DNA of 64,000 bases from a virus. The stretch lies in IMG/VR virus record IMGVR_UViG_3300046328_000221, positions 1-64,000 of that record. One strand, 5' to 3'. The notes under the pieces were generated by a model that worked only from the letters and a program-made list of their open reading frames with translations, had not been told where the DNA came from and did not search any database. Numbering within the stretch: position 1 is the stretch's first letter; every line of letters starts with the position of its first letter. A program made the translations under genes and the position numbers. Shown piece after piece: positions 1-12,487 of the stretch.

Positions 1-273
1 TCATTTGTTCTCTCCCTTGATAAGAGCAATCAGATGTTCTCCGTACCAGTTTTCAAAGTCTCCACAGGTGCAGCCAACAAAACCACCTTCAATACCTGCT
101 TCTGGCTCATGCGACTCCATCAGTCCAAAAATGCGTTCACGCTCATTGGTAATTGTCTTAGCTTTATATTTTGCTAACCAAAGGTCAAACATTCGGTTTG
201 CGTAAGTGCTATCTACTCTTTCGGCTGAGTATGCGTCACGCACATCTGCTGTTTTTGGTATAAGGTCACTCAT
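1..273 (-). CDS. hypothetical early protein (CxC motif; C-terminal LIALIKGENK shared with neighbour)
   Basis: ORF track; ATGA overlap with upstream ORF; tail ERIFGLME...LIKGENK resembles ERIIKLLE...LIKGETK of 270..518. Confidence 0.7.
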   Translation of the reverse strand: MSDLIPKTADVRDAYSAERVDSTYANRMFDLWLAKYKAKTITNERERIFGLMESHEPEAGIEGGFVGCTCGDFENWYGEHLIALIKGENK

Positions 274-518
274 TTTGTTTCTCCCTTGATAAGTTCAAGT
301 GCTAGGTTGATGCCGTCTTTAAGCGACCAAGCACCATCTTCTTCATAGTAGGCACCCTCAATGCTTTCTAAAAGTTTGATAATCCGCTCCTCGGCGTGTT
401 TCACACCTAACTGAAACTCTGATACCCCACAACATTCGCAAGGTTCGGTGAACTCTTTTGGTGGGTTATTGATGATGTTGTAAATGTGTGTGTCTTTGTT
501 GTTGTTATTTATACTCAT
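270..518 (-). CDS. hypothetical early protein (CECC motif)
   Basis: ORF track; overlapping starts/stops with neighbours. Confidence 0.7.
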   Translation of the reverse strand: MSINNNNKDTHIYNIINNPPKEFTEPCECCGVSEFQLGVKHAEERIIKLLESIEGAYYEEDGAWSLKDGINLALELIKGETK

Positions 519-736
519 TTCTTTTCCTCCGCTTTCCAGGTATCAATAAGGTCAATTGCCTCACAAAAACAAAAACCCTTTGTGTTGTGAGTTCCAATTG
601 TGCATTTGTTATTTTCTCGTAGCATTGCCATCAATTCCTCCTTGGCATACTCTGTGCCATTGAAAAACCCTGTATTGTATTCAGCCTCAATTGCTTTGCC
701 AATTACTTTGTTTTGTTCTTTTGTAAACTCAGACAT
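515..736 (-). CDS. hypothetical early protein
   Basis: ORF track; AAGGAG RBS upstream. Confidence 0.7.
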   Translation of the reverse strand: MSEFTKEQNKVIGKAIEAEYNTGFFNGTEYAKEELMAMLRENNKCTIGTHNTKGFCFCEAIDLIDTWKAEEKK

Positions 737-830
737 TTGTTTTCTCCTTACGGTAATCCATCCACTTGAAAAGCAGAATCAGCGGTGAAGCAAGGTATAG
801 CCCTGCAACCATTCCCCATAGAAATGTCAT
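729..830 (-). CDS. small membrane peptide (MTFLWGMVAGLYLASPLILLFKW...)
   Basis: Read manually; 33 aa, one hydrophobic helix; ATGA overlap with 827..967. Confidence 0.55.
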   Translation of the reverse strand: MTFLWGMVAGLYLASPLILLFKWMDYRKEKTNV

Positions 831-967
831 TCTGCAATCTCCTCTGGAAATAGAAAGTCCAAGAAACCCAATACTGCATCTTCTGCTAAGGCTTTATCTT
901 CTGGTGACTTCCAGTATGTCTTATTAATGTAATCGTATGCTTGTTCTGCTATTTGTTTTTCATTCAT
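827..967 (-). CDS. hypothetical early protein (46 aa, MNEKQIAEQAYD...)
   Basis: Read manually; preceded by ACCCTAAAAGAA leader motif and TGTCATAAT -10. Confidence 0.6.
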   Translation of the reverse strand: MNEKQIAEQAYDYINKTYWKSPEDKALAEDAVLGFLDFLFPEEIAE

Positions 968-1011
968 ATTGGGTTCCGTTCTTTTAGGGTTTATACTATT
1001 ATGACAGAGAC

Positions 1012-1530
1012 TTAGGCGTTTGTCAACTCTGATTTGAAAGAATTTAGATAAATTTCTGCGGTAGGTAGTTCATCTAAACTAAATGATTCCTCAAAGCCAT
1101 TCCACTTAGTAGTAAACTTACGTGTAGAGAAATCAATAGTATATACACCCTCACAGAATAGATCGTCATTCTCAAACTCTGATTCGTCCTGGAGAGGAAT
1201 AGTTGCATTAGAATAAACTAATACCCTCAAGATATCGCAGCCAGTATCTCTAGTTAGACTAGGATACATAATAGAAAAGTCTTGACCTTGCTCAAATGTC
1301 ATCATATCTTCATCATTTACAAATGGCTTAGAGAGTTCTGCAAGTTCTTCCTGTGTAGCAAATCTTGCCTTGACCAATGATTTCTCAATCTTATCAAGCA
1401 TCTTGTGTTCTGAAATGAAATCTAGAATCCTGGTTCCAGTATATGAAGGGTAGCCATCCCATTGGCCATACTGTGCAACACGAGTACGTCCAGTAGAGTC
1501 AATCACCTTAGTTAGATTGCGAGTTCCCAT
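1012..1530 (-). CDS. conserved phage protein (MGTR...YGQWDGYPSYTG type)
   Basis: ORF track; start moved to ATG at 1530 after AGAAAGG RBS; QWDGYP motif typical of phage early proteins. Confidence 0.75.
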   Translation of the reverse strand: MGTRNLTKVIDSTGRTRVAQYGQWDGYPSYTGTRILDFISEHKMLDKIEKSLVKARFATQEELAELSKPFVNDEDMMTFEQGQDFSIMYPSLTRDTGCDILRVLVYSNATIPLQDESEFENDDLFCEGVYTIDFSTRKFTTKWNGFEESFSLDELPTAEIYLNSFKSELTNA

Positions 1531-1649
1531 TGGAAACCTTTCTTTAGGGTTTTTTCGATACTCAATTCTCTCACAGATTCTGGGAAAAGTCAAGTACTAT
1601 CGTAATTGTTTTTTCTATCGTAATTATCTTATTATTATGTAAAGTGAGG

Positions 1650-1676
1650 CCGACCACATTCGATCAGCTTTGTCAA
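1650..1676 (-). repeat. TTGACA-N15-GGTCGG element E1
   Basis: plus strand CCGACC 1650-1655, 15 nt, TGTCAA 1671-1676. Confidence 0.85.
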
Positions 1677-1680
1677 TAGA

Positions 1681-1710
1681 AAAACCCCCAGAGTTTCCTC
1701 TGAGGGCTAA
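1681..1710 (-). terminator. intrinsic terminator
   Basis: minus strand CCCTCAGAG-GAAA-CTCTGGGGG then U-tract, just after stop of 1722..2738. Confidence 0.75.
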
Positions 1711-1721
1711 TCTATTTTTGA

Positions 1722-2738
1722 CTAAGCCATTACGACCTGACGAACAACTTTCATTAGGCGGTTCTTTTCAGCATTGGTCATTGGGTCAAAACCACTAGCA
1801 CTTGCCAAGATAGATTCGTTAGAACCCTTACGCCCATTGCGATACCAATCCAAGCGTTCCGTTAGAGCGTTATAAGCACCCCAAGCAGTTCCTGAAATGG
1901 TGTCGTTGAATTGACCAACATAAATGTCATTGAGCAAGTCAATCTTAGTTGCGTGTTTGGTGTTTGACGCTTTTGCGTTTTCATCTTTTGGAGCAGGATA
2001 AGCAAGTTCAACAATCTTGTCGAATTGTGCTTTGGTAATTTCTGTTTCAATCATCTCATTAGCCATAGCAGAAAACTCGTCAATGTATTTGTGAGCCAAG
2101 CCCAACGCTTCACGAGCAACAGCAATCTTGCCCTCTGCTGTCTGTGTGTGTCTAATCTTGAATGTCTGCTTAGGAGCGTTCTTGCCCTTTAGAGAAGTCA
2201 AAGCCAAGTTTAGAGTGTTAGCACAAACAACACGAACAGGAGTGATACTTGCCTGAATAGCAATCGAACCGTCGTGTGAAGTATTGACAAGCAAGTAGTT
2301 GTCAATCTTATCAGCAACGCCATTTGGGTCAAGGGTAATTGAATTGGTCAATGCGATAGCACCAAAGACAACACGCCCACCACGAATAGAGCCAGCAGTT
2401 TCCCAACGTCCACCACCGTCTAGCAGGTTATCACCAAACGAGAATAGGTCTTCGTTCTGTAATGGAACATAGCGTTCACCAACGACACCAAGAATGTCAT
2501 TTGTGCTACGGTCAAAAGGGTTAGTCCTAGTCACGAATGAATAGTTCTTGTCGCTGTTGAAACCCTCTGGAGTTTCTACGTCCTCAAGGCGAACGTTCCA
2601 ATCGTTTAGTTTTGCCAAAGACAACATCTGTGCTGTGTCTACCTCATCAGCAAAGACTGTTCCCAATCCATGCCAAGCAGGTTGGCGAAGTGAAGCAAAT
2701 GCTGTTTCGCCGTTTACTGTTTCTAAGTCGTGAGCCAT
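1722..2738 (-). CDS. DUF932-like phage/plasmid protein
   Basis: MAHDLET start; PAWHGLG, VGERYVPLQN, WETAGSIRGGRVVF, NTSHDGS, TPVRVVCANTL, GTAWGAYNALTE motifs. Confidence 0.85.
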   Translation of the reverse strand: MAHDLETVNGETAFASLRQPAWHGLGTVFADEVDTAQMLSLAKLNDWNVRLEDVETPEGFNSDKNYSFVTRTNPFDRSTNDILGVVGERYVPLQNEDLFSFGDNLLDGGGRWETAGSIRGGRVVFGAIALTNSITLDPNGVADKIDNYLLVNTSHDGSIAIQASITPVRVVCANTLNLALTSLKGKNAPKQTFKIRHTQTAEGKIAVAREALGLAHKYIDEFSAMANEMIETEITKAQFDKIVELAYPAPKDENAKASNTKHATKIDLLNDIYVGQFNDTISGTAWGAYNALTERLDWYRNGRKGSNESILASASGFDPMTNAEKNRLMKVVRQVVMA

Positions 2739-2780
2739 AGGAGCCAACTTTCTTTTTAGGGGTGAATGTTTAGTAAGACT

Positions 2781-2809
2781 ATTATCCCACGAACCACTGA
2801 CAATGTCAA
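2781..2809 (-). promoter_or_regulatory. sigma70-type promoter with internal TGTC box
   Basis: minus strand TTGACA-17nt-GATAAT, with TGTC 12 nt before the -10. Confidence 0.75.
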
Positions 2810-2854
2810 GCGTATTTAGATAATTATTTGGGGAAAAATAGATCGTGTCGTAAC

Positions 2855-2881
2855 TTGACATCTGATCCAAGATCTGGTCGG
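2855..2881 (+). repeat. TTGACA-N15-GGTCGG element E2
   Basis: TTGACA 2855-2860, GGTCGG 2876-2881. Confidence 0.85.
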
Positions 2882-2892
2882 CCCCGAAGGGG

Positions 2893-2920
2893 GGCCAGTT
2901 TTACATCATGGCCAGGATGT
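2893..2920 (-). ncRNA. candidate H-type RNA pseudoknot
   Basis: minus strand ACAUC-CU-GGCCA-U-GAUGU-AAAAC-UGGCC gives two interlocking 5-bp stems. Confidence 0.45.
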
Positions 2921-2929
2921 TTCATACCA

Positions 2930-3103
2930 CTATGAAAATAGTGGACGTGTTAGTTTTTCAAGGTTATCTAGTTTATCAATATACTCTTCAAGTACATCAC
3001 GCATGTACCCTGCACTAACGTGTGCACTGTGGCTTGCAATATATTCATCGTGAAGCTCCACAGAATATTGTCTAATTAGTTTATTTAGTTTACGTTTACT
3101 CAT
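2930..3103 (-). CDS. hypothetical early protein
   Basis: ORF track; start moved to MSKRKLN. Confidence 0.6.
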   Translation of the reverse strand: MSKRKLNKLIRQYSVELHDEYIASHSAHVSAGYMRDVLEEYIDKLDNLEKLTRPLFS

Positions 3104-3281
3104 CTTCTTCTTCCTCATCTGGAACCTCTTCAACATCAATAGAGACAACATCTTGATATGTGATATCGCTATCCATGCTGTCTCCCCATGATTCCCATGC
3201 TAGGGCTTCTGCTGCTTCTTTAGATTCCGCTTCAATCTCTCCAGCAAATTCAATTGTCATTTCAATATAAAACTTTGGCAT
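3096..3281 (-). CDS. small acidic early protein
   Basis: ORF track; EIEAESKEAAEALA motif common in small phage proteins. Confidence 0.7.
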   Translation of the reverse strand: MPKFYIEMTIEFAGEIEAESKEAAEALAWESWGDSMDSDITYQDVVSIDVEEVPDEEEEDE

Positions 3282-3484
3282 TAATCCATCTCTCCGTCGT
3301 AGTATTTGTGTGAACAGTCAACACACATCTTTAGTTCTTCAAACCATATGTCATGGTCAACAGGTGTTTGGCAATAGACACAAGGTCGTGTCTCTGTGTA
3401 TTTATATTCTTGGTCACCCTCGCAAATATCGCAAAAGGGATTACAGTCAAAGCCACCTTCGTGGACTGGGCATTCAATCATCAT
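3281..3484 (-). CDS. Cys-rich (Zn-binding) early protein, probably leaderless
   Basis: CPVH..CNPFCDIC..CVYC..CVDC; ATG 7 nt after TAGAAT -10. Confidence 0.7.
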   Translation of the reverse strand: MMIECPVHEGGFDCNPFCDICEGDQEYKYTETRPCVYCQTPVDHDIWFEELKMCVDCSHKYYDGEMD

Positions 3485-3515
3485 ACCCACAATTCTATCC
3501 TGAGCCTCTGACATT

Positions 3516-3704
3516 TTAGCAACTCCCATCTGTAGGAATACGTTCTTCTGGTACGCCCATCATACGCAATACAGTTTGAGTTCTTTCAATAACACCCTGT
3601 ATATAATCACCCATTGGGTCGTTTATGGAAAGGGTATCAAGTTCAGGAATCAATTCTTCAAGGTCAATAATCAACCTATTGATAATAGCCTCATTACTCA
3701 TCAT
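3516..3704 (-). CDS. hypothetical early protein
   Basis: ORF track; start shortened to MMSNEAI. Confidence 0.6.
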   Translation of the reverse strand: MMSNEAIINRLIIDLEELIPELDTLSINDPMGDYIQGVIERTQTVLRMMGVPEERIPTDGSC

Positions 3705-3873
3705 AGCCATGTCCGTTCTGTAGAATGTAAATAAATTCAAGGGCCTCAAGGAATCCTTCATTGTATTTTCTATCCATAGTGTGGTCTATGTCATAGCCAG
3801 ATAGTTCTTCATTGTTGACAGACATTGCTAAAGATAGACGAGCCAACTCAATTTGCTTTTCTAATTCATTCAT
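3694..3873 (-). CDS. hypothetical early protein, probably leaderless
   Basis: MNELEKQ start 7 nt after TACAAT -10. Confidence 0.6.
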   Translation of the reverse strand: MNELEKQIELARLSLAMSVNNEELSGYDIDHTMDRKYNEGFLEALEFIYILQNGHGYDE

Positions 3874-3904
3874 AGATACCATTGTAGTCATACCCTCTGA
3901 CATT

Positions 3905-4099
3905 TTAGTCCTCCCACTCAGATACATCTTGGCCATTCAAAACGGCATTGGCATAATCGTAGCGGTCGTTATCGCTCAGGGTACCTAGTAGTTCCATCTG
4001 CTCCTCAGTGAAAGCGTCGTGGTCAGCAATAATAATCTTGCCACCACCATAGTTGCCATCCTCAGAAAAGTACAAACCATCGTATTCAACATAAGCCAT
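3905..4099 (-). CDS. small acidic early protein
   Basis: ORF track; AAGGAG RBS. Confidence 0.7.
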   Translation of the reverse strand: MAYVEYDGLYFSEDGNYGGGKIIIADHDAFTEEQMELLGTLSDNDRYDYANAVLNGQDVSEWED

Positions 4100-4215
4100 T
4101 AGTTATTCTCCTTTACGCAATCGCATTCTTGAACCATTAGTTTACCATTGACCACTGACACTACACCAAACTCATTACAGGTTTCGCAAAAGTGGATAGA
4201 CAAATTGCCTTGCAT
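4099..4215 (-). CDS. small Zn-ribbon-like protein (CETC...CDC)
   Basis: start moved to MQGNLS after AGAAAGG RBS. Confidence 0.6.
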   Translation of the reverse strand: MQGNLSIHFCETCNEFGVVSVVNGKLMVQECDCVKENN

Positions 4216-4315
4216 AGGGGTTCCTTTCTTTATACCTCTATTGTATAACAGGGGTACGACATTTTGGGGAACGTAAAGGGCGTGTCTTAAAGTTGTTATT
4301 GTTTTGTTATCTGAG

Positions 4316-4342
4316 CCGACCACAAAATGGATCAGTTGTCAA
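4316..4342 (-). repeat. TTGACA-N15-GGTCGG element E3
   Basis: CCGACC 4316-4321, TGTCAA 4337-4342. Confidence 0.85.
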
Positions 4343-4364
4343 GCTGCCAAGATCAGGGCAAAAG

Positions 4365-4395
4365 AAAAACCCCTACCATTTCTGATAGGGGCTAA
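4365..4395 (-). terminator. intrinsic terminator, paralogous to 1681-1710
   Basis: minus strand GCCCCTATCA-GAAA-TGGTAGGGGT then U-tract; same AGATTAGCCC lead-in. Confidence 0.75.
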
Positions 4396-4406
4396 TCTTA
4401 TTTTAT

Positions 4407-4853
4407 TTAGATAAGGTCAATCACAGCAGAGTATGAACTTGCTGAAACTTCCTCTTGGGTAGTCATACGCAAGATACGCAAGTTGCGTTCTAGGATTTCC
4501 TTACGAGTTGTGTATTCACGACCAAAACTTTCTTTCTGATTTGGGCGTGTTGGTTCTGTTGGCTTGGTTGGGAAACCTAGCACATCAGTATCAAACTCAA
4601 CAGAGATAGAGTTGTAGCGGTATGAAGAGGTTAGACGAGCAGGTGAAGAACTATCAGTTCCAATGTTGTCAGGGTTGCTTAGGGCTTCCTTAGCCTTAGT
4701 CAATACCTCAGCCTCATACGCCTTTACTTCTTCCTTGTATGTCTTTACTGCCTCAGAGTAGTTAGCAACCTCTTCGTCAATCTTAGCAATAGACTTCTCA
4801 ATGTCAGCGATTAGAGATGAGGTTGGGATTTTTACAGACAGGGTTCTAGCCAT
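4407..4853 (-). CDS. coiled-coil early protein
   Basis: ORF track; ACCCCTAAAAGAAAG leader and TGTC promoter upstream. Confidence 0.8.
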   Translation of the reverse strand: MARTLSVKIPTSSLIADIEKSIAKIDEEVANYSEAVKTYKEEVKAYEAEVLTKAKEALSNPDNIGTDSSSPARLTSSYRYNSISVEFDTDVLGFPTKPTEPTRPNQKESFGREYTTRKEILERNLRILRMTTQEEVSASSYSAVIDLI

Positions 4854-5007
4854 AATTAGACTTCTTTCTTTTAGGGGTATTTGTTTATTACTTGATTATT
4901 GTATCAGAGGGGTCTGACATTTTAGTTGCTAGGTGAGAGCCTTACATCTACTTCTAGAATAACTCATCTTGTGCTTTGTAGAAACCTAACAAACTAAAAT
5001 TAGTTTA

Positions 5008-5154
5008 TTACTTTACAGTAGTCCAGCGGTCTTGTCCGTTCACCAAAAGGCGAACACGAGCAGAACCAGACTTGTTCTTTACGATTTCCTGAATTGTTCC
5101 TACAACGCCAGACTTAGCGGTGGTGAACTGTGAGCCAACAGTTAGAGTGTTCAT
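5008..5154 (-). CDS. small beta-barrel (SH3-like) protein MNTLTVGSQFTTAKSGVVGTIQEIV...RWTTVK
   Basis: Read manually; 48 aa; AGAAG RBS; downstream of TTGACA-17-TATAAT promoter. Confidence 0.7.
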   Translation of the reverse strand: MNTLTVGSQFTTAKSGVVGTIQEIVKNKSGSARVRLLVNGQDRWTTVK

Positions 5155-5228
5155 TTTTGCTTCTTTCCGATACAGAGTATCTTGTTTGCTAGTGATTTCT
5201 AGTTATTTACAACTTTTGTTGTATCTCT

Positions 5229-5257
5229 ATTATAGGGCTACCCTACGACATTGTCAA
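5229..5257 (-). promoter_or_regulatory. consensus sigma70 promoter with TGTC box
   Basis: minus strand TTGACA-ATGTCGTAGGGTAGCCC-TATAAT. Confidence 0.85.
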
Positions 5258-5325
5258 GTGTTTTGGCATAATTTCTTTTGTGGATTTTCACAAACTTTTT
5301 GGGGATTTTTTGTGCGTGTCGTAAG

Positions 5326-5352
5326 TTGACTGGGGATCAAGAATGTGGTCGG
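5326..5352 (+). repeat. TTGACT-N15-GGTCGG element E4
   Basis: TTGACT 5326-5331, GGTCGG 5347-5352. Confidence 0.85.
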
Positions 5353-5356
5353 CCCC

Positions 5357-5505
5357 CTATCGCCAATTAAAAATTACAGCAAGAATAATTATTCCAACTA
5401 GAATAAAGAATGGTCCTGCAAAAATTATGCAGCCTAAGTCCATTGCTCCTATTGCAGGATAATCACTATCGCTATTGTCAACACTACCCATAAAAAGTAC
5501 TCCAT
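5357..5505 (-). CDS. two tandem tiny hydrophobic peptides (5449..5505 MEYFLWVVLTIAIVIILQ; 5357..5443 MDLGCIIFAGPFFILVGIIILAVIFNWR)
   Basis: Read manually; co-oriented, each one transmembrane length; AGGAG before the second. Confidence 0.45.
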
Positions 5506-5506
5506 C

Positions 5507-5698
5507 CTATTTACCATTATCCCATACAACTTCTGAACAGTCAACACACTCAATTGCAATATTGATACCGCCATAAGTCACTGCGGTTAGGTCATGGTGA
5601 AAGTGTTCTTTTACACGTCCCTCTATCCAATCACTCTCATATCGCATACCTGCACTAAACACTTCTGGATTTTCTTGGTAGGCCTTCAACTTTTCCAT
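5507..5698 (-). CDS. hypothetical early protein (NIAIECVDCSEVV)
   Basis: ORF track; TAATG coupling to upstream gene. Confidence 0.7.
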   Translation of the reverse strand: MEKLKAYQENPEVFSAGMRYESDWIEGRVKEHFHHDLTAVTYGGINIAIECVDCSEVVWDNGK

Positions 5699-6219
5699 TA
5701 CTCTGCACTTCCTCTAATGATAATCCAAATAAGTGCCTGCATTGAGCGTGGTGTCATTCCAAATTCGAATGCAACCTTTTTTACTGCATTAGCCAATTCG
5801 TTATAGGTTGACTGATTAGGTGTTTTCTTTTCAATACCAACTGCTCTCAACATCCATACGTCAATTACTACGGCCTGCTCATCACCTGCAATAGCCTTAG
5901 CGAATGCATTAGTTTTCATTCCCTTTAGTGCACTGAATCCCATAGTCAAAGAATTGTTAGCCATAGTCATGTTGTTTTTGAATCCTGGTACATGTTCACC
6001 TAGTGAGAAACTAATAGCCTTAGTGACATTGGCAGACCAACGTTCACGAGGTGAGAATGCACTAACAACACTTGCACCAACTTCAAGATAGGTGTCTAGG
6101 TTCCTTGCAACTTCAAGTGCAACCTTTTCTGCGTCAACATACCATTTACTGGCCTGCTCTACTTGTCCAAAGGTTGCCTTGCTTACTAGTGCACGATAGA
6201 TTTCTACGTAGTTAGTCAT
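5698..6219 (-). CDS. conserved phage protein with SAFSP..W..N / KTNAF / VVIDVW motifs, possibly HhH-GPD glycosylase-related
   Basis: ORF track; VVIDVWMLR and C-terminal 'QALIW' resemble the HhH-GPD catalytic region; function inferred. Confidence 0.6.
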   Translation of the reverse strand: MTNYVEIYRALVSKATFGQVEQASKWYVDAEKVALEVARNLDTYLEVGASVVSAFSPRERWSANVTKAISFSLGEHVPGFKNNMTMANNSLTMGFSALKGMKTNAFAKAIAGDEQAVVIDVWMLRAVGIEKKTPNQSTYNELANAVKKVAFEFGMTPRSMQALIWIIIRGSAE

Positions 6220-6273
6220 GGTGACTTCTTTCTTTAGGGGTTGATAAGATAAGTTTACTACAGGGGTACGACA

Positions 6274-6396
6274 TTATAGGAATTCGAATGGATCCCGATC
6301 TTGGAATATTTCCTCAAAGTCATAGAGTGAGTACGCTTCTGGATTAGCGTAGTAGTCTTGCAAAGCTTCTTTTATTTCCTCTGCTTGTTCATCCAT
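6274..6396 (-). CDS. small acidic protein (40 aa)
   Basis: Read manually; GAGG RBS; stop abuts next TGTC promoter box. Confidence 0.6.
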   Translation of the reverse strand: MDEQAEEIKEALQDYYANPEAYSLYDFEEIFQDRDPFEFL

Positions 6397-6397
6397 G

Positions 6398-6697
6398 TTA
6401 GTATTCCTCTCCGCTTATGAATCCCTCAATACGAGTATTCTCAACAACCTGCATTGCGGTCACTTCAATACTTCCGTCACGATTACGAACTTGGAAGTCA
6501 CCAATTTTTGGCAGGGTAAGCATACGATAGTAGTCACCGTCATCATAGGCGTGAATCGCTTCAACACATACGTCAACCATTTCAATTGGAATAGGTGGAT
6601 AACAATTTCCTCTAAGGTGCATGCCAACTGCATCTCTCAAGGTCACGTTAGGGAATAGGTCATTGTCTTGAATCTCTGCTACAAAGTTGCTGCCCAT
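6398..6697 (-). CDS. hypothetical early protein (HLRGNCYPPIP)
   Basis: ORF track. Confidence 0.75.
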   Translation of the reverse strand: MGSNFVAEIQDNDLFPNVTLRDAVGMHLRGNCYPPIPIEMVDVCVEAIHAYDDGDYYRMLTLPKIGDFQVRNRDGSIEVTAMQVVENTRIEGFISGEEY

Positions 6698-6792
6698 TAG
6701 TATCCTGCCTTCTCTAGAATTGATAGAATTTGTTCAATAGTGTCGCTATCAAGGTTATCAATAGCCGCTTCGTTGATTACGTTTTCAAACAT
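6697..6792 (-). CDS. small acidic protein (31 aa)
   Basis: Read manually; TTGACA-17-TATACT promoter at 6824-6852. Confidence 0.6.
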   Translation of the reverse strand: MFENVINEAAIDNLDSDTIEQILSILEKAGY

Positions 6793-6838
6793 GCAACTCA
6801 TTTCTTTTGGGGTTATTAGTATTAGTATAAACTATTTG

Positions 6839-6991
6839 TTAGTAATTGTCAAGGGCCTTACGCTTATTTTCTGAGCGTGTCCCCTTGTATTTTTTAGGCA
6901 CGACAACTTGCTTCTTGCCAGCCTTTAGCATAGAGTGGAATAACGCTTGGCTCTCTGCCTTGCGTCTTGCTTCATTTCTTTTACCTAACAT
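6839..6991 (-). CDS. small basic protein (50 aa), probably leaderless
   Basis: Read manually; K/R-rich; ATG 6 nt after TAAGAT -10. Confidence 0.6.
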   Translation of the reverse strand: MLGKRNEARRKAESQALFHSMLKAGKKQVVVPKKYKGTRSENKRKALDNY

Positions 6992-7057
6992 ACAACTATC
7001 TTAGCATTACCCTATGACATTTTGGGAAATTGGGGCAAATTTCTTAATTAACGTAAT

Positions 7058-7107
7058 TTGACATTTGATCAAAAATGGGGCCGACCACACCTGCCAGCTT
7101 TTGTCAA
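7058..7107. repeat. element E5, double-armed: TTGACA-N17-CCGACC-N15-TGTCAA
   Basis: inverted TTGACA/TGTCAA arms around the asymmetric core. Confidence 0.85.
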
Positions 7108-7125
7108 GCCAGCAAGTGGGTGTGT

Positions 7126-7239
7126 CTAAAACGGTGGGGTATCTTTTTCAATCCAACCTGCCATTTTCCAAAGAATGTATCCCTGCATTATGTTGAAAGC
7201 CAAAGATAGAATTAGTGCTAGTGTTAGAATGTTTTCCAT
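7126..7239 (-). CDS. small membrane peptide (37 aa)
   Basis: Read manually; MENILTLALILSLAFNIMQGYILW. Confidence 0.55.
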   Translation of the reverse strand: MENILTLALILSLAFNIMQGYILWKMAGWIEKDTPPF

Positions 7240-7409
7240 TAGTTCCCCTTTACAGCATTACGGAATCGAATCTCATCAAAGCGTGAGTTATCATTTTTGA
7301 ACATAGAAACAAAATCACTAACCATTTTTGAAAATAATGCTGGGTGTGTTTTGTCGCTTGCGTAGTTTAGAATCTTTGCGGTTTCGACATAGTCTTTGCG
7401 TGTCATCAT
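7239..7409 (-). CDS. conserved small phage protein (MTRKDY...NSRFDEIRF)
   Basis: Read manually; MTRKDY and NxRFD motifs recur in phage early proteins; AAGGA RBS. Confidence 0.75.
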   Translation of the reverse strand: MMTRKDYVETAKILNYASDKTHPALFSKMVSDFVSMFKNDNSRFDEIRFRNAVKGN

Positions 7410-7421
7410 TATTTTCTATCC

Positions 7422-7574
7422 TTAGTTTTTGTGAGCGAGTGAAAAGGTAAAGTAGCCCTCAAAGTGTGGGCTTGGGATTTTGTGGTGAAACATAGGCATT
7501 AGGTTTAGGTTGTTAGCCATTAGACCCAATCCACCGCATACCTCGCAAGGTGTTAGTTCTTCATCTGAATACAT
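7422..7574 (-). CDS. small protein with CEVCGGLG motif
   Basis: Read manually; AAGGG RBS; TGTC promoter upstream. Confidence 0.55.
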   Translation of the reverse strand: MYSDEELTPCEVCGGLGLMANNLNLMPMFHHKIPSPHFEGYFTFSLAHKN

Positions 7575-7623
7575 AGGTTTTCCCTTCTTAGTTGTTTTTA
7601 GTTTAGCATTACCCTACGACATT

Positions 7624-7767
7624 TTAGAATGTCTTGTTTAGGTGTAGGTTCACCCATTTTTGCCACATAGGGCCAGGCATATCGTTAGGCTTTACCCCTG
7701 CGTGAATGACCTTTAGCATTTTGTTGTAAAAGTCTTTTTCTGATTCTGTCATTCTTGGCTTTGGCAT
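7624..7767 (-). CDS. hypothetical early protein (47 aa)
   Basis: Read manually; AGAAAGGG RBS; own TGTC promoter. Confidence 0.6.
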   Translation of the reverse strand: MPKPRMTESEKDFYNKMLKVIHAGVKPNDMPGPMWQKWVNLHLNKTF

Positions 7768-7819
7768 TAGTTGCCCTTTCTTTGTTTGTTAGTTTATTTT
7801 AGCAGAGGGGTCTGACATT

Positions 7820-7984
7820 TTAGCGGTAGCCATAGCCTAGGTATTCTGCGAAATCAACAGGGTCTAAGTCTAGGTAAGTGATAGCACTAGCCAACGGCAT
7901 TAGTCCGTCAAGTTCATCACAGGTAGGGCATACAACAGTATCGCTAGTGAAAACACCCTCGCAGTAAACACACATTTTATCCAT
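7820..7984 (-). CDS. Zn-ribbon protein (CVYC...CPTC)
   Basis: Read manually; GAAAGG RBS; own TGTC promoter. Confidence 0.65.
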   Translation of the reverse strand: MDKMCVYCEGVFTSDTVVCPTCDELDGLMPLASAITYLDLDPVDFAEYLGYGYR

Positions 7985-8108
7985 TAGTTTTCCTTTCATC
8001 TGATAGTTCTACATTACCATAGGGGTCTGACATTTATGGCACAAACACGCCTTTTTTCTTTGTAAGTTTCTACAAACTTTTTTGGAGGTTTCTTACAATG
8101 ATCTTAAG

Positions 8109-8129
8109 TTATCCACAGAGTTATCCACA
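8109..8129 (+). promoter_or_regulatory. tandem DnaA boxes
   Basis: TTATCCACA at 8109-8117 and 8121-8129, 3-nt spacer. Confidence 0.7.
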
Positions 8130-8132
8130 GGA

Positions 8133-8159
8133 CCGACCAGGTTTCCCTGGATTTGTCAA
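8133..8159 (-). repeat. TTGACA-N15-GGTCGG element E6
   Basis: CCGACC 8133-8138, TGTCAA 8154-8159. Confidence 0.85.
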
Positions 8160-8230
8160 TAGTCTCCCTCATAGATTGAATATTCCTCAGAGCCACAGCC
8201 ACAGCATGGACGGTCTTCGCACGAGCACAT
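8156..8230 (-). CDS. Cys-rich micro-peptide MCSCEDRPCCGCGSEEYSIYEGDY
   Basis: Read manually; GAAAGG RBS and own TGTC promoter. Confidence 0.6.
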   Translation of the reverse strand: MCSCEDRPCCGCGSEEYSIYEGDY

Positions 8231-8275
8231 AGTTTTCCTTTCGATTAAAATAAGATTAGCAGAGACATACGACAT

Positions 8276-8502
8276 TTAGTCGAATGCCCACTGGGAAGCA
8301 TACATCTCCCCAATCATCTCCTCGTGAGCAATCCGTGCCTGAGCACGGTCAGAAGCAGCCTGCTCCTCTGGGGTAAGGATTTCCTCCTCCCAGAAGTCAT
8401 CTAGGTCCCAACCGAAATCTTGTGCCATATCTTCCATTACTGCTCTCCTTCTGATAGAAATTCCTGAACATCTTCATCTGTAAAATCACCGTATCTAGCC
8501 AT
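8276..8502 (-). CDS. two coupled acidic micro-proteins (8437..8502, 21 aa; 8276..8437, 53 aa)
   Basis: Read manually; TAATG overlap; AAGGAG RBS; first ORF leaderless after TAAGTT -10. Confidence 0.55.
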
Positions 8503-8580
8503 AAGATAAACTTAGCACACACCTACGACAATTACAACACGACACGCCAGAATTGGGAGAAATTTTTAAAGCTTCTTAAC

Positions 8581-8629
8581 TTGACAAACTGTGATCTTTG
8601 GGGTCGGCTCCTTTCGGAGTTTTTGTCAA
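8581..8629. repeat. element E7, double-armed: TTGACA-N15-GGTCGG-N16-TGTCAA, with an internal CTCC-TTTC-GGAG hairpin
   Basis: direct reading. Confidence 0.85.
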
Positions 8630-8641
8630 ATCGACACGCCG

Positions 8642-9066
8642 TTAGAAGGGCAATCCATTTTTCTTTATGTCAATGACCATCTCAACTAAAAAGCCAATGG
8701 TTATGATTACGATTACTGTTTGAAAAATTGCGGTAAGCATTAGATTAGTTCCTTATCGTTGATTAGCATTATGTCAATGAGGGTGATTAGTTCCTCAAGT
8801 TCTGAGATAGGTAGTTTATTTTCATTCATAGCATTATCCTAACATAGAGGGCTGACAATTATAGCCAAGCCATTACTGAGAAAGTTCCTAGAGCGATAGC
8901 CCCAAGGGTAGCAAGCAAGTAGATCCACATAGCATTACCTTTCTTAGTTATTGTAAGTGTAGCAGGATACACAGACATTCTTGCCGTTATCCTTGATGAT
9001 TGTTAGAACACGACCTTCGCAAATCTCGCAACGGTCTGTCTTTGTTATTACCTTTAGTGAATTCAT
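8642..9066 (-). CDS. four micro-ORFs (8944..9066 CEIC/CVSC Zn-ribbon; 8859..8930 TM peptide; 8740..8829; 8642..8740 TM peptide)
   Basis: Read manually; RBSs or leaderless starts; TGTC promoters between them. Confidence 0.55.
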
Positions 9067-9164
9067 CTGGAATTCCTTTCTTTATCTATACCTATAACCT
9101 ATCACAGGGGTATGACAATGTCAAGAGTATTTGAGGAAATTTTTATAACAAACATATAACATAG

Positions 9165-9185
9165 TTATACACACCCTGTGGATAA
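9165..9185. promoter_or_regulatory. inverted DnaA box pair
   Basis: TTATACACA-ccc-TGTGGATAA. Confidence 0.7.
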
Positions 9186-9187
9186 GT

Positions 9188-9212
9188 CCGGCCAGGATCC
9201 TGAAAAAGTCAA
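9188..9212 (-). repeat. variant element E8 (TTGACT-N13-GGCCGG)
   Basis: CCGGCC 9188-9193, AGTCAA 9207-9212; followed by ATCGACACGCCG as at E7. Confidence 0.6.
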
Positions 9213-9369
9213 ATCGACACGCCGTGTTTTATGAAAGATTAATTAAGTTAACATTAAATAACGAAATGATAACAAAGGGTCAAAACAGGGCAAAAAGGGC
9301 AATAAATGTCAGACCCCCCTGTTAGTGTATTAGTAGATAAAGAAATATATAAAAGAAATGAGGTCAGAA

Positions 9370-9516
9370 ATGACAGTTAAGATTTACAAGACAGATGGTT
9401 CATTCTACTACCAGTGGTTGGACCGTGATGAAGTTAGAATGCTACCTCGCATTACTAAGCAATACACTAGCCTAACAAAGGTTGGACTTATCAAGGGGTT
9501 CAGTATCTCTCGCTAA
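9370..9516 (+). CDS. hypothetical early protein (48 aa)
   Basis: Read manually; GAGG RBS; TGTC promoter at 9305. Confidence 0.6.
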   Translation: MTVKIYKTDGSFYYQWLDRDEVRMLPRITKQYTSLTKVGLIKGFSISR

Positions 9517-9567
9517 TTGTCAGGGGTATCTGATACAGTATTACTAAATAGATAAGGATAAAACATT

Positions 9568-9765
9568 ATGGATAAAACACTAGGTCAGATTACAGATGAA
9601 ATTTACAACGCTGTAAAAAACTTTCACACTGCCTCTATGGGCAACGATAGAAAAGAAATAGAAAATGCTCAGGCAGAATACGCAGGTATGATTTCTATCT
9701 ATGGAACTAAAGCAGTTGCCGATGTAGTAGAATTTTACAACGAAACAGTTATTAGAAGGGCTTAG
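9568..9765 (+). CDS. hypothetical early protein
   Basis: ORF track; AAGGA RBS; TGTC promoter at 9516. Confidence 0.7.
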   Translation: MDKTLGQITDEIYNAVKNFHTASMGNDRKEIENAQAEYAGMISIYGTKAVADVVEFYNETVIRRA

Positions 9766-9768
9766 AAA

Positions 9769-9855
9769 ATGATTACACTTACATTCGAAACTTGGGAAGA
9801 GTTTGACCAAGCAATCGCAGGTATTGCTAGTTTAGAAATTGAGATAACAAAATAA
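9769..9855 (+). CDS. micro-protein MITLTFETWEEFDQAIAGIASLEIEITK
   Basis: Read manually; AAGGG RBS. Confidence 0.55.
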   Translation: MITLTFETWEEFDQAIAGIASLEIEITK

Positions 9856-10013
9856 AAGACTTGGGGGGCGTATAGTCCCTGAGTGCGGACTATAATTTTT
9901 GATAATTGTCTGCCAGATCGTGTATCATACATCAGCTCTACATTCACAGATTTAGTAATTTTCATTTCTGAAAACATATTCAGATTTCTGAATTTCTATG
10001 GTATACTATATAC

Positions 10014-10541
10014 ATGAAGCAATGTACAAAATGTCATCAAACAAAAGATTTTTCAGAATTTCACAAAAAATCTAAACTTCCAGGTGGACTAGCATATCAC
10101 TGTAAATCCTGTGTACGTGAATATGATATGAAAGAGCATGATCCTAAAAGAGTTATGCCTAGAAAGCTTAAAGCTGATTTAGTTCATTGTCGTAAATGTA
10201 ATCAATATTTAGATAAGTCAAAATTTTGGGGGCAGCTAACATATTGCAAAGAATGTTCTAAACTAGTAGGACATTCTGCAAACCTAAAAAGATTTGGCCT
10301 TACAGTAGAAGACTATATTGACCTAGAAAGATCACAAAATGGTGTATGTGCTATTTGCAAAGATCCAGAAATAAATAAAAGACGTTTATCTGTTGATCAT
10401 AATCATTCATGTTGTCCAGGTAGTGGTTCTTGTGGAAAATGTATTAGAGGACTTTTGTGTTCAAATTGCAATACATTTCTTGGAAATGCCAAAGACAATG
10501 TTGAAATATTAAAAGCTGCTATAAGATATTTGCAAAAGTAA
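10014..10541 (+). CDS. Endonuclease VII-family nuclease with N-terminal Zn fingers (probable homing endonuclease)
   Basis: CAIC...LSVDHNH...IRGLLCSNCNTFLG motif; two CxxC repeats; leaderless TGGTATACT promoter. Confidence 0.85.
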   Translation: MKQCTKCHQTKDFSEFHKKSKLPGGLAYHCKSCVREYDMKEHDPKRVMPRKLKADLVHCRKCNQYLDKSKFWGQLTYCKECSKLVGHSANLKRFGLTVEDYIDLERSQNGVCAICKDPEINKRRLSVDHNHSCCPGSGSCGKCIRGLLCSNCNTFLGNAKDNVEILKAAIRYLQK

Positions 10542-10574
10542 AATATTTTTCAGATTTTGCGGTATACTAATTAC

Positions 10575-10628
10575 ATGACTGATTGTAACTGTAGCTGCAA
10601 TGGATCTTGTCCATGCAAGCCTAATTAA
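10575..10628 (+). CDS. metallothionein-like micro-peptide MTDCNCSCNGSCPCKPN
   Basis: Read manually; 5 Cys in 17 aa; ATG 6 nt after TATACT -10. Confidence 0.5.
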   Translation: MTDCNCSCNGSCPCKPN

Positions 10629-10780
10629 AGACTAGATAATTAACTAGTTCATAAAACATATACATCCACATAAATGCAACGGTAGATGCAAAGATAACCC
10701 ATAACGTATTTTTAATCATTGTAGCTCCATGCAAATAGAAATATAACAATAACCACACATGTTGTAATAAACCCTATCAT
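10621..10780 (-). CDS. two tiny membrane peptides (10712..10780; 10621..10719)
   Basis: Read manually; coupled to 10780..10950 by TAATG overlap. Confidence 0.45.
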
Positions 10781-10950
10781 TACGATATGCCAAACTCTTT
10801 AAGCTTAATATGTACAAGTTTTACTGATACATTAAGTTCTTTAGCGATCTCGCCAACTTCTTTTCCTTGTACAATATATGCATTACGTAGCCAATCTTCT
10901 TGCTGATGTGGCTTTGTATCTCTAAATGCGTTAGTTTCTTTGTTTTCCAT
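10780..10950 (-). CDS. small HTH DNA-binding protein
   Basis: WLRNAYIVQGKEVGEIAKELNVSVKLVHIKLKEFGI; AAGGAG RBS; TTGACA-17-TACACT promoter; similar to 62041..62193. Confidence 0.7.
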   Translation of the reverse strand: MENKETNAFRDTKPHQQEDWLRNAYIVQGKEVGEIAKELNVSVKLVHIKLKEFGIS

Positions 10951-11044
10951 AGTCTCTCCTTAATGAATGTAAAGTGTATCACATATATGATGGTTTGTCA
11001 AATATTTGTCGGTACATAAGCAGCACAGCTGCTCTGATGAAACA

Positions 11045-11251
11045 TCACCATTTGCCAACAGGACAAGTAGCTTGACGTAATGTAGATTTCAATTGCATAA
11101 AACATCCGCACTTGGTGCATTTCATCAAATTCTTATTAAGAGCAGGACATTCCATACATATAGCCAAACGCTCTTCTTTTAAATCTTTATCTGATCTTGG
11201 TTGTCTTGGATCAAATAAATCTAAAAACTCAACATCTCCGTTATCCTTCAT
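11045..11251 (-). CDS. Cys-rich protein (RLAICMECP..CTKCGCF..ATCPVGKW)
   Basis: ORF track; conserved-looking Cys pattern. Confidence 0.7.
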   Translation of the reverse strand: MKDNGDVEFLDLFDPRQPRSDKDLKEERLAICMECPALNKNLMKCTKCGCFMQLKSTLRQATCPVGKW

Positions 11252-11259
11252 TATTAAAT

Positions 11260-12010
11260 GATATCACATTCTTGCGAGGATAGTTCCTATGGGGATTTGG
11301 GTATGGGTTTTGTTAAGTTATACCCCGAAAGTTTAAAATCCTGTCTATGGGGCATACAAGGCTTTGCAGAAGTATTAATCGATATCACATTTATTGGATG
11401 GGACATCCATATTTTATGTTTATGGGGATTTGGGATCTCTATATCACGCCGACGAATAAATCCGAAGAGCTTTATATCAAAGTTATCCACATATATAATC
11501 AGGCTGTTAATAACTTTTAAAAACTATATTATAATTAAATCATTATGACTATTGAAGCTTGGATAGGTACCATAGTTGGTATATCTACAATAATCACATC
11601 AGCCACGCTTGGCATTAGATGGTTAGTCAAACATTATTTCGCAGAGATCAAGCACGAACTAAAACCTAATGGTGGTTCGTCAATAAAAGATCAGGTTAAT
11701 AGAGTAGAAAAAGACATAGTTGATTTAAAGAATCAAAACATAAAAGGTGAAGAATATCACGAAAAACTAGATAATAAAATTGATCACCTAACAGAGCTTT
11801 TTATTCAATACGTATCTCGCCAGAAGTAAAACTGCGAAAACTTAAAACCCATTATATTATTATATATATAAAACTATCTAACTATATTTAATATATCTTA
11901 TATCTTTTATCTAATATATATTTATATATAATACACCTTGTTTAAAAAATATTCCCATAATTCATGTTAAATCTATGTTAAATCTTTGTAACAATTCTGA
12001 AACAATTGAA
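11260..12010. other. candidate replication origin region
   Basis: TATGGGGATTTGGG repeats at 11288 and 11421; DnaA box 11483-11491; extremely AT-rich 11850-11960; 11-bp phased repeats 11964-12007. Confidence 0.4.
11545..11829 (+). CDS. single-TM plus coiled-coil membrane protein (possible lysis accessory)
   Basis: N-terminal hydrophobic helix; ELKPNGGSSIKDQVNR motif common in actinophage membrane proteins. Confidence 0.7.
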   Translation: MTIEAWIGTIVGISTIITSATLGIRWLVKHYFAEIKHELKPNGGSSIKDQVNRVEKDIVDLKNQNIKGEEYHEKLDNKIDHLTELFIQYVSRQK

Positions 12011-12028
12011 ATATGATATAATTTATTA

Positions 12029-12076
12029 AACTAGCATTCAGGATAGTCTCTCAACCCACCATTCTGAGTGCTAGTT
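12029..12076 (+). ncRNA. candidate small hairpin RNA with C/U-rich loop
   Basis: 16-bp stem with two G-U pairs (favours + strand RNA); 16-nt loop AGUCUCUCAACCCACC; TGATATAAT -10 at 12014-12022. Confidence 0.6.
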
Positions 12077-12103
12077 CTATTTATATGGTATAATTTGATT
12101 ACT

Positions 12104-12487
12104 ATGACTAATTGCTGCCCAGATATTGTTGGTGCCAATCCAGTAAGTTTTCAATGGGTTGTTACAAGAGGAGACACCTCTCCACTTCGTGTATATTTTT
12201 ATGAGCCAGATGAAGTATCTTTCTTTGATATGACAGGTTGGGACTTTACTTCAACTGCCTATGACTTTAAGAATGACATATCTGATGAATTAGAGATTTC
12301 TGTTGGTGAAGGCTATGTTGATATTACAGCTCCAGCAAGCATTACAGGGTATTGGGGTACAGGATATGCCACTACCGTTGCAGAATTAGCATTTGATCTC
12401 CAGGTAACATTAACTGACGATTCCGTTTGGACCTCAGTAATTGGAACCATTAAGGTTCTTGGAGACGTAACAGGAGGAAGTTTATAA
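12104..12487 (+). CDS. virion structural protein (BppU-like N-terminal domain)
   Basis: VTRGDT motif; paralog of 15214; start after TGGTATAAT. Confidence 0.65.
   Translation: MTNCCPDIVGANPVSFQWVVTRGDTSPLRVYFYEPDEVSFFDMTGWDFTSTAYDFKNDISDELEISVGEGYVDITAPASITGYWGTGYATTVAELAFDLQVTLTDDSVWTSVIGTIKVLGDVTGGSL

Follow-up and report, generated by a model that had tools for sequence, protein, structure and literature searches.

Short intergenic sites that occur in many copies and are read by a phage protein are known from actinophages as the stoperators of cluster A mycobacteriophages (the sites of L5 gp71). These are 13-bp single sites, oriented with transcription and found throughout the genome of a temperate phage, and like the element considered here they contain the complement of TTGACA. 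In T4-type phages, small early genes of unknown function are flanked by promoter-early stem-loop (PeSL) cassettes, that is, by modules made of a terminator plus a promoter (PMC2839356). The first-step-transfer regions of T5-like phages have DnaA boxes arranged in pairs 3 nt apart (10.1101/866236), and the nicks of T5 DNA lie on one strand, genome-wide (PMC10644984). Here we analyze a different element, TTGACW-N15-GGTCGG, which is repeated between the early genes of a lake phage represented by the IMG/VR record IMGVR_UViG_3300046328_000221. The analyzed window corresponds to the first 64 kb (64,000 nucleotides) of this 94,045-bp viral contig, both ends of which are identical over 831 bp. The results support a DNA-level site that is not an ordinary promoter. 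Probably, it is a control site on which proteins dock.

A search of the window with the pattern TTGACW-N15-GGTCGG returned seven exact matches, at 1650(-), 2855(+), 4316(-), 5326(+), 7081(-), 8133(-) and 8581(+), all within positions 1650-8607, the expected number being close to zero. Not a single match was obtained in any of 100 shuffled sequences (100/100), and allowing for one mismatch added no further sites. An earlier note on this DNA had proposed eight TTGAC[A/T]-N15-GGTCGG elements. Seven of these are exact and lie where they had been placed, whereas the eighth, at 9188(-), turned out to be degenerate, reading TTGACT-N15-CCGGAC. GGTCGG itself occurs nine times in the 94,045-bp genome: in the seven exact elements, in a ninth element at genome position 90733, where the arm is on the opposite side of the core, and once at an unrelated site. 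The whole-genome search revealed no elements in the remaining 80 kb of the genome. Within the 9 kb that hold all the exact copies, GGTCGG is found in both polarities (four minus, three plus), as the same note had observed. However, the asymmetric hexamer is only the centre of a wider, near-symmetric core of ~13 bp (TGTG-GTCGG-CCCC). Since this core is found in either polarity behind an arm, the apparent orientation is that of a near-symmetric site. A complete unit consists of an arm, ~15 nt, a core of ~8-13 bp, ~15 nt and an inverted arm, which together form a pseudo-palindrome of ~50 bp; the second, inverted arms previously noticed in E5 and E7 are indeed there (Table 1). The elements have no single-strand fold in common (DNA fold z-scores range from -1.95 to +0.79), and for this reason we read the element as duplex DNA. 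We also considered an RNA or hairpin reading, but rejected it because of the missing shared fold, the occurrence of both polarities and the fact that no Rfam family was matched in region 1-12500.

If the element is written as arm, N12, TGTG, G and a hexamer, it takes on the frame of a sigma-A promoter. The -35 box is perfect; TTGACA or TTGACT is present in all 34 copies of the nonredundant set described below. The spacer of 17 bp is within the 16-18 bp typical of such promoters, and a T at spacer position 15, resulting in TG at -15/-14, is found in 28 of the 34 copies. It is the -10 box that is absent: the hexamer in its place is TCGGCC, none of the elements has TAnnnT, and a promoter scan called none of them as promoters. 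The earlier characterization of the element as having a perfect -35 but no usable -10, and thus not being an ordinary promoter, is therefore confirmed. The real promoters of the phage have the identical -35 hexamer, a 17-bp spacer and often TG. Over all lineages, all-GC hexamers follow TTGACA at spacers of 13-20 only, with the TAnnnT peak at exactly 17. The element is thus a sigma-A-type promoter frame with the melting box swapped for a GC core, and its two-armed form represents two half-promoters facing each other over one core. Among the readings listed in the earlier note, a decoy for RNA polymerase was the least preferred, but it agrees best with the anatomy, given that the real promoters of the phage are matched in arm, 17-bp frame and TG.

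Conservation of the element was analyzed in 30 related loci retrieved via the neighbouring DUF932 protein. Eight of them carry the motif, with 34 nonredundant copies at N15, approximately half of which have a second, inverted arm, against no more than 4 at N14 or N16; both the conservation in relatives and the fixed 15-nt spacer hold. In two further near-complete genomes, one of 96 kb with 5 copies and one of 110 kb with 6, each set is within one stretch of 6.5-9 kb. Hence, the proposed confinement to the terminal region is seen in the full genome as well as in these two relatives. None of the findings that the note had named as speaking against its proposal turned up. At least one arm accompanies 42 of 48 cores (both arms in 15 cases, one in 27, none in 6), and the spacing of inverted-arm pairs peaks at 36-39 bp (22 of 39). 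The 6-8-mer core is exactly identical over the 34 copies despite diverged spacers and flanks, the genes being ~75% identical between genomes. For one element the entire 27-mer, spacer included, is identical in four genomes (L010 5927, L012 5561, L014 4187 and G002 14086), the flanking genes of which are just ~70-80% identical. The 27-mer of E6 is also identical in L014, in a different context. No close cultured relative could be found by DNA similarity. In prokaryote genomes (596 Gb), the 17-base form of the composite site gave 18 scattered single hits, approximately the chance number. These hits display no repeated or actinobacterial pattern and, consequently, we rejected an operator of a host regulon.

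The linkers are also found in relatives that lack GGTCGG, where a different GC core takes its slot. The core is GGTCGGCC in the present genome, GGCGCGGCC in L008, GGTGCGCC followed by a C run in L016 and L017, and TGCGC in L020, while L009 has GGGCGGCC in six linkers and GGTCGG in two. These lineage cores differ by one or two mutations, and the core type shifts together with the set of 4-mer palindromes that the lineage avoids. In the present 94-kb genome GCGC occurs once, CGCG not at all and CCGG once, compared with ~150 of each expected from composition. In L016, GGCC is absent and 13 of the 15 GCGC are located in cores. At 6-7 nt from the core sits GACACGCC, and GATC is found in or beside 25 of the 34 elements. 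The first 10 kb contain 16 GATC, whereas ~44 would be expected from the rest of the genome; within 1-9212, 11 out of 15 touch an element or its partner modules. AGCT resembles GATC in being depleted in the first 10 kb only. We also asked if the core word is strongly avoided elsewhere. The counts do not establish this: there is a single copy outside the elements, yet CpG words are in general ~4-fold depleted. In two relatives, the core word is rarer than the reversed control.

The genomic setting of the elements is uniform. All genes from 9066 down to 1 are leftward, and most gaps between early genes are ~50 bp long, holding nothing but a promoter of the form TGTCR-N11-TAnnnT. Such a site precedes nearly every small early gene, and 20 of the 27 sites in the genome, mostly on the minus strand, are located in the 2.4-9.5 kb region (2466-9518). 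They agree with the PafBC consensus tGTCgg(N10)tA(N3)T, which describes promoters without a -35 box (PMC8635444). The PafBC DNA-damage promoters of the host seem to have been adopted by the early units. The elements fill the seven long linkers (137-202 bp), each of which runs from a stop codon or terminator to the promoter that follows, so that the suggested placement between the end of one cassette and the promoter of the next applies to all copies. Along transcription, the order is stop codon, element, TTACGA/TTAAGA (TTAMGA) repeats, often GACACGCC, and promoter; a textbook terminator follows the stop codon in two of the seven linkers. We also asked if the element keeps a constant distance or helical phase relative to the promoter that follows. 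It does not: the distances, which come from orthologous and hence non-independent copies, cluster at ~68, 80, 93, 106 and 117. The clusters probably reflect the number of 11-12-bp TTAMGA units. The TTACGA/TTAAGA units, with a period of ~11-12 bp, lie between element and promoter at 1565-1625, 2815-2850 and 7030-7057, and in relatives too. Some of them read GTTAC-N6-GTTAC, a pattern like that of the sites bound by OmpR-family response regulators in actinobacteria.

Among cultured phages, the best matches to the DUF932 gene come from BE-cluster Streptomyces phages (Stanwilliamsviridae), such as Yaboi (NC_048730) and Samisti12 (NC_042012). Their DnaE polymerase and DUF932 early protein are, respectively, ~55% and ~52% identical to those of the lake phage. 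In these phages, the minus strand carries the DUF932 gene at 1.2-2.6 kb, within a long terminal repeat, and the lake phage has it at the same position and strand. The small early genes are likewise leftward, with linkers composed of a terminator hairpin, a private GC core and a promoter. In Yaboi, the hairpin is followed by CCGCCCCGG, an A-rich stretch often containing GATC, and the promoter, the core being 16 or 22-24 nt from the next -35. All 43 copies of CCGCCCCGG are in the two terminal repeats and none in the 107 kb between them. In Samisti12 this slot is taken by another core, a 15-bp near-palindrome. The lake-phage elements share the private GC core, the terminator-promoter linkers and the restriction to the terminal early region. 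In contrast to them, the BE-cluster cores have no TTGACA arms, keep a fixed distance to the -35 and point with transcription in 20 of 22 copies; moreover, the terminal repeat is 12 kb instead of 831 bp. Since cores without arms exist in the BE cluster, the GC core in early linkers is a family trait, and the facing arms are an addition of the lake-phage lineages. Motifs, promoters and intergenic repeats all go unmentioned in the paper on Coruscant, another BE-cluster phage, and we found no published description of either the BE-cluster cores or the lake-phage element.

The host is almost certainly a freshwater actinobacterium. This follows from the WhiB gene, the PafBC-type promoters, the ribosome-binding sites, which on direct reading of the sequence are AGAAAGG, the DnaE polymerase, closest to Streptomyces phage DnaE, and the sequencing runs with phage sequence, all of which are freshwater metagenomes. 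Pfam and PHROG scans of ~100 proteins (part of the open reading frames) identified WhiB, RecA, ribonucleotide reductase, ThyX, primase, helicase, DnaE and two HNH endonucleases; no sigma factor, Dam-type methylase or recombinase was found among these ~100 proteins. WhiB-family proteins are a class that binds region 4 of sigma-A. In the same scans, hardly any of the early proteins could be assigned to a known family.

Six perfect DnaA boxes are present in the genome, compared with ~1 expected. They include the pair at 8109-8129 as well as boxes at 9177-9185 and 11483. In E6 this pair, its boxes 3 nt apart, is in the place of the second arm, and the same arrangement of an arm and a DnaA pair is also observed in L009, L010, L012 and L016. 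The 831-bp terminal repeat (1-831 is the same as 93215-94045) has a stop codon at its start and extends to 2 nt beyond a second one. One sequencing run contains a unitig of exactly the 831 bases of the repeat, and the DUF932 gene is as far from the left end as in cultured relatives with mapped ends; the contig start may be the true physical end. Outside the window, at 90083-90781 (L039 8083-8781), there is a 699-bp non-coding island that resembles a replication origin and is headed by the ninth core. It contains repeated ~30-bp ATTACGA units, AT-rich repeats and two DnaA boxes (90110 and 90131).

How might such an element work? Our favoured, though tentative, explanation is that of a control site in duplex DNA, with a lineage-specific protein on the core and a host RNA polymerase that could dock but not open the DNA. 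The site is located in the linkers that lead from terminator to promoter within the terminal early region. We infer that the protein on the core would most likely be phage-encoded. One or two TTGACA arms face the core in a sigma-A promoter frame, the 17-bp spacer of which ends in TG or TGTG. With the core in the -10 position, the holoenzyme could dock as a closed complex, and no melting would occur. The likely job would be the control of early units by shut-off, by insulation or by holding the polymerase beside the weak PafBC-type promoters downstream. The data demonstrate the anatomy and promoter frame of the site, its confinement and conservation, and the privacy of its cores to lineages, whereas the binder and the effect of its binding are inferred. 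Several observations argue for this explanation. The N15 spacing is rigid while the spacers vary, and there is no common single-strand fold. The -35, the TG and the 17-bp frame are shared with the real promoters of the phage, and two arms converge on a single core. The cores are private to lineages, yet one or two mutations apart and in the same slot, and private GC cores occupy the equivalent linkers of cultured Streptomyces phages. Two more near-complete relatives show confinement to a 6.5-9-kb region, and the chance level of hits argues against a host regulon site.

A number of points weigh against this explanation. The presence of two core variants in one genome (six plus two in L009) speaks for a tolerant reader, or for concerted evolution, more than for a strict reader. 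Docking on any unmeltable block would, on its own, leave the identity of cores within a genome unexplained, and a regulator on its own would leave the arms unexplained. The Streptomyces phages carry cores without arms, and the enrichment of GATC in the spacers (25/34) is unexplained by the model. Furthermore, Pfam found neither a sigma factor nor a helix-turn-helix regulator among the early proteins, and among the partial contigs no early protein within 10 kb was seen to follow the core type by presence or similarity. A bolder proposal, which we consider rather doubtful, is that a convergent pair of deliberately disabled sigma-A promoters parks host RNA polymerase, whichever way it faces, on an operator private to the phage. 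Such a closed-complex trap would split the first-entering DNA into insulated units or pass the polymerase to the PafBC-type promoters that lack a -35. If true, it would be a previously undescribed class of phage control element.

Other explanations have to be weighed against the docking site. The elements might be genuine promoters used by a modified polymerase, with a phage factor or an unrecognized sigma-like protein reading the GC core as the equivalent of -10. They would then give extra sense transcripts or, from the copies directed against the genes, antisense RNAs that shut off early genes. The perfect -35 hexamer, spacing and TG are in line with this idea, as are the lineage-specific core, expected of a co-evolving specificity factor, and the WhiB-family protein encoded by the phage. 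Nevertheless, we consider it improbable, since the scans revealed no sigma-like gene, convergent arms would fire into each other, the orientation relative to genes is mixed, a GC-rich -10 is hard to melt and the copies in Streptomyces phages are cores without arms. A role in T5-like DNA entry appears no less improbable. Here, a virion-delivered, early or host protein, DnaA included, would anchor, pause or ratchet the first-entering DNA. The sites are confined to the terminal early region (in cultured relatives with known ends, to the terminal repeats), restriction-type palindromes are depleted there, as in first-entering DNA, and one core per genome is adjoined by a DnaA pair 3 nt apart, as in T5-like first-step-transfer regions (10.1101/866236). 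Of these parallels, only the DnaA pair next to E6 is specific. On the other hand, a stop signal requires one site rather than one per linker, the sites follow the boundaries of transcription units, the distance between the Yaboi core and the following -35 is constant, which points to transcription, and nothing like the element has been described in T5.

The core might also have no specific reader at all, being instead a GC clamp or part of a tract-less terminator, homogenized by recombination between linkers and reshaped by restriction avoidance. It often extends the 3' arm of a terminator-type hairpin, its type changes with the set of avoided 4-mer palindromes, its two variants stand side by side in L009 and the linkers are recombination junctions. 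These properties are difficult to reconcile with exact 6-8-mer identity across 34 copies whose spacers and flanks have diverged, with fixed distances to partners (N15 to the arm, N6-7 to GACACGCC, 0-8 nt to DnaA boxes) and with both polarities, and we rank a readerless core below the two preceding explanations. Least probable of all are dedicated sites for cassette exchange, whether recombinase crossovers, homing-endonuclease targets or T5-type nicks. Inverted arms do surround an asymmetric centre, the early gene content is mosaic and two HNH endonuclease genes are present. Moreover, strain variants in lakes, as read from assembled contigs rather than raw reads, break where E6 and its DnaA boxes begin or end (8109, 8131/8133 and 8159). 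However, breakpoints are equally frequent at promoter-only gaps (e.g. 7627, 7783 and 8005), none of the assembled contigs joins two elements by inversion or deletion, and no recombinase family was detected in the Pfam batches, which covered part of the open reading frames. The earlier suggestion of cassette-exchange sites is thus correct in that exchange occurs, but breakpoints fall on all conserved linker modules, including gaps that hold only a promoter, with no preference for the element. The suggestion of T5-type nick sites is not supported, because T5 nicks are one-strand and genome-wide (PMC10644984) whereas the elements are mixed and confined. Exchange at conserved linker modules, similar to that of PeSLs (PMC2839356), is likely a by-product of the elements and not their purpose.

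The individual elements and their surroundings are listed in Table 1. Directly after the stop codon of gene 2930-3151, at 2893-2929(-), there is also a possible small pseudoknot consisting of a stem, loop CTGGCCAT, a linker ending in AAAAC and TGGCC pairing back to the loop. This layout recurs in relatives.

Table 1. Elements of the early region, their coordinates in the window and their immediate surroundings
Element	Position	Strand	Composition	Surroundings
E1	1650..1676	-	One arm, N15, core	After intrinsic terminator 1683-1708(-); on the downstream side ATTACGATAG repeats, then promoter 1565-1593(-)
E2	2855..2881	+	One arm; order in gene direction: GC hairpin, CCGACC core, spacer with two GATC, TGTCAA arm, GTTACGACACG	Upstream of the strong DUF932-gene promoter 2781-2809(-); position kept in 8 relatives
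E3	4316..4342	-	One arm	After intrinsic terminator 4368-4393(-)
E4	5326..5352	+	One arm	Core adjoins the stop codon that ends gene 5357-5491(-); arm on the side of the following promoter, 5229-5257(-)
E5	7058..7107	.	Two-armed 50-bp unit; arms 7058-7063 and 7102-7107, core 7081-7086	
E6	8109..8159	-	Arm and core 8133-8159; second arm replaced by DnaA-box pair	
E7	8581..8629	.	Two-armed; arms 8581-8586 and 8624-8629, core 8602-8607; small hairpin between core and second arm	
E8	9186..9212	-	Degenerate; TTGACT arm, N15, core CCGGAC	In divergent region; adjoins DnaA box 9177-9185; core holds the sole CCGG of the genome

Among known systems, repeated linker elements of early regions are represented by PeSLs and operator arrays, none of which combines a promoter frame with a lineage-private GC core at the -10 position. 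The PeSL cassettes (PMC2839356) are similar in that terminator-plus-promoter modules flank small early genes of unknown function and in that gene content is mosaic, with junctions in the modules. However, a PeSL is a working promoter plus a terminator stem-loop. The whole linkers of the lake phage have both, whereas the element itself is neither and constitutes a third component with a lineage-private core. The T5-like first-step-transfer region (10.1101/866236) shares the terminal location, leftward genes, depletion of restriction-type sites and DnaA pairs 3 nt apart, but it has one large non-coding repeat region instead of one site per linker, and no such element. Compared with stoperators, the present elements are bi- or tripartite, of mixed orientation, limited to the early region and associated with no known repressor. 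The private cores may explain the swapping of early cassettes and why co-infecting relatives would be spared cross-regulation. They may also provide a handle on the organization and timing of the first transcription in a large family of actinophages, abundant lake phages included. The kind of core found here is common to cultured Streptomyces phages and is, therefore, open to testing at the bench.

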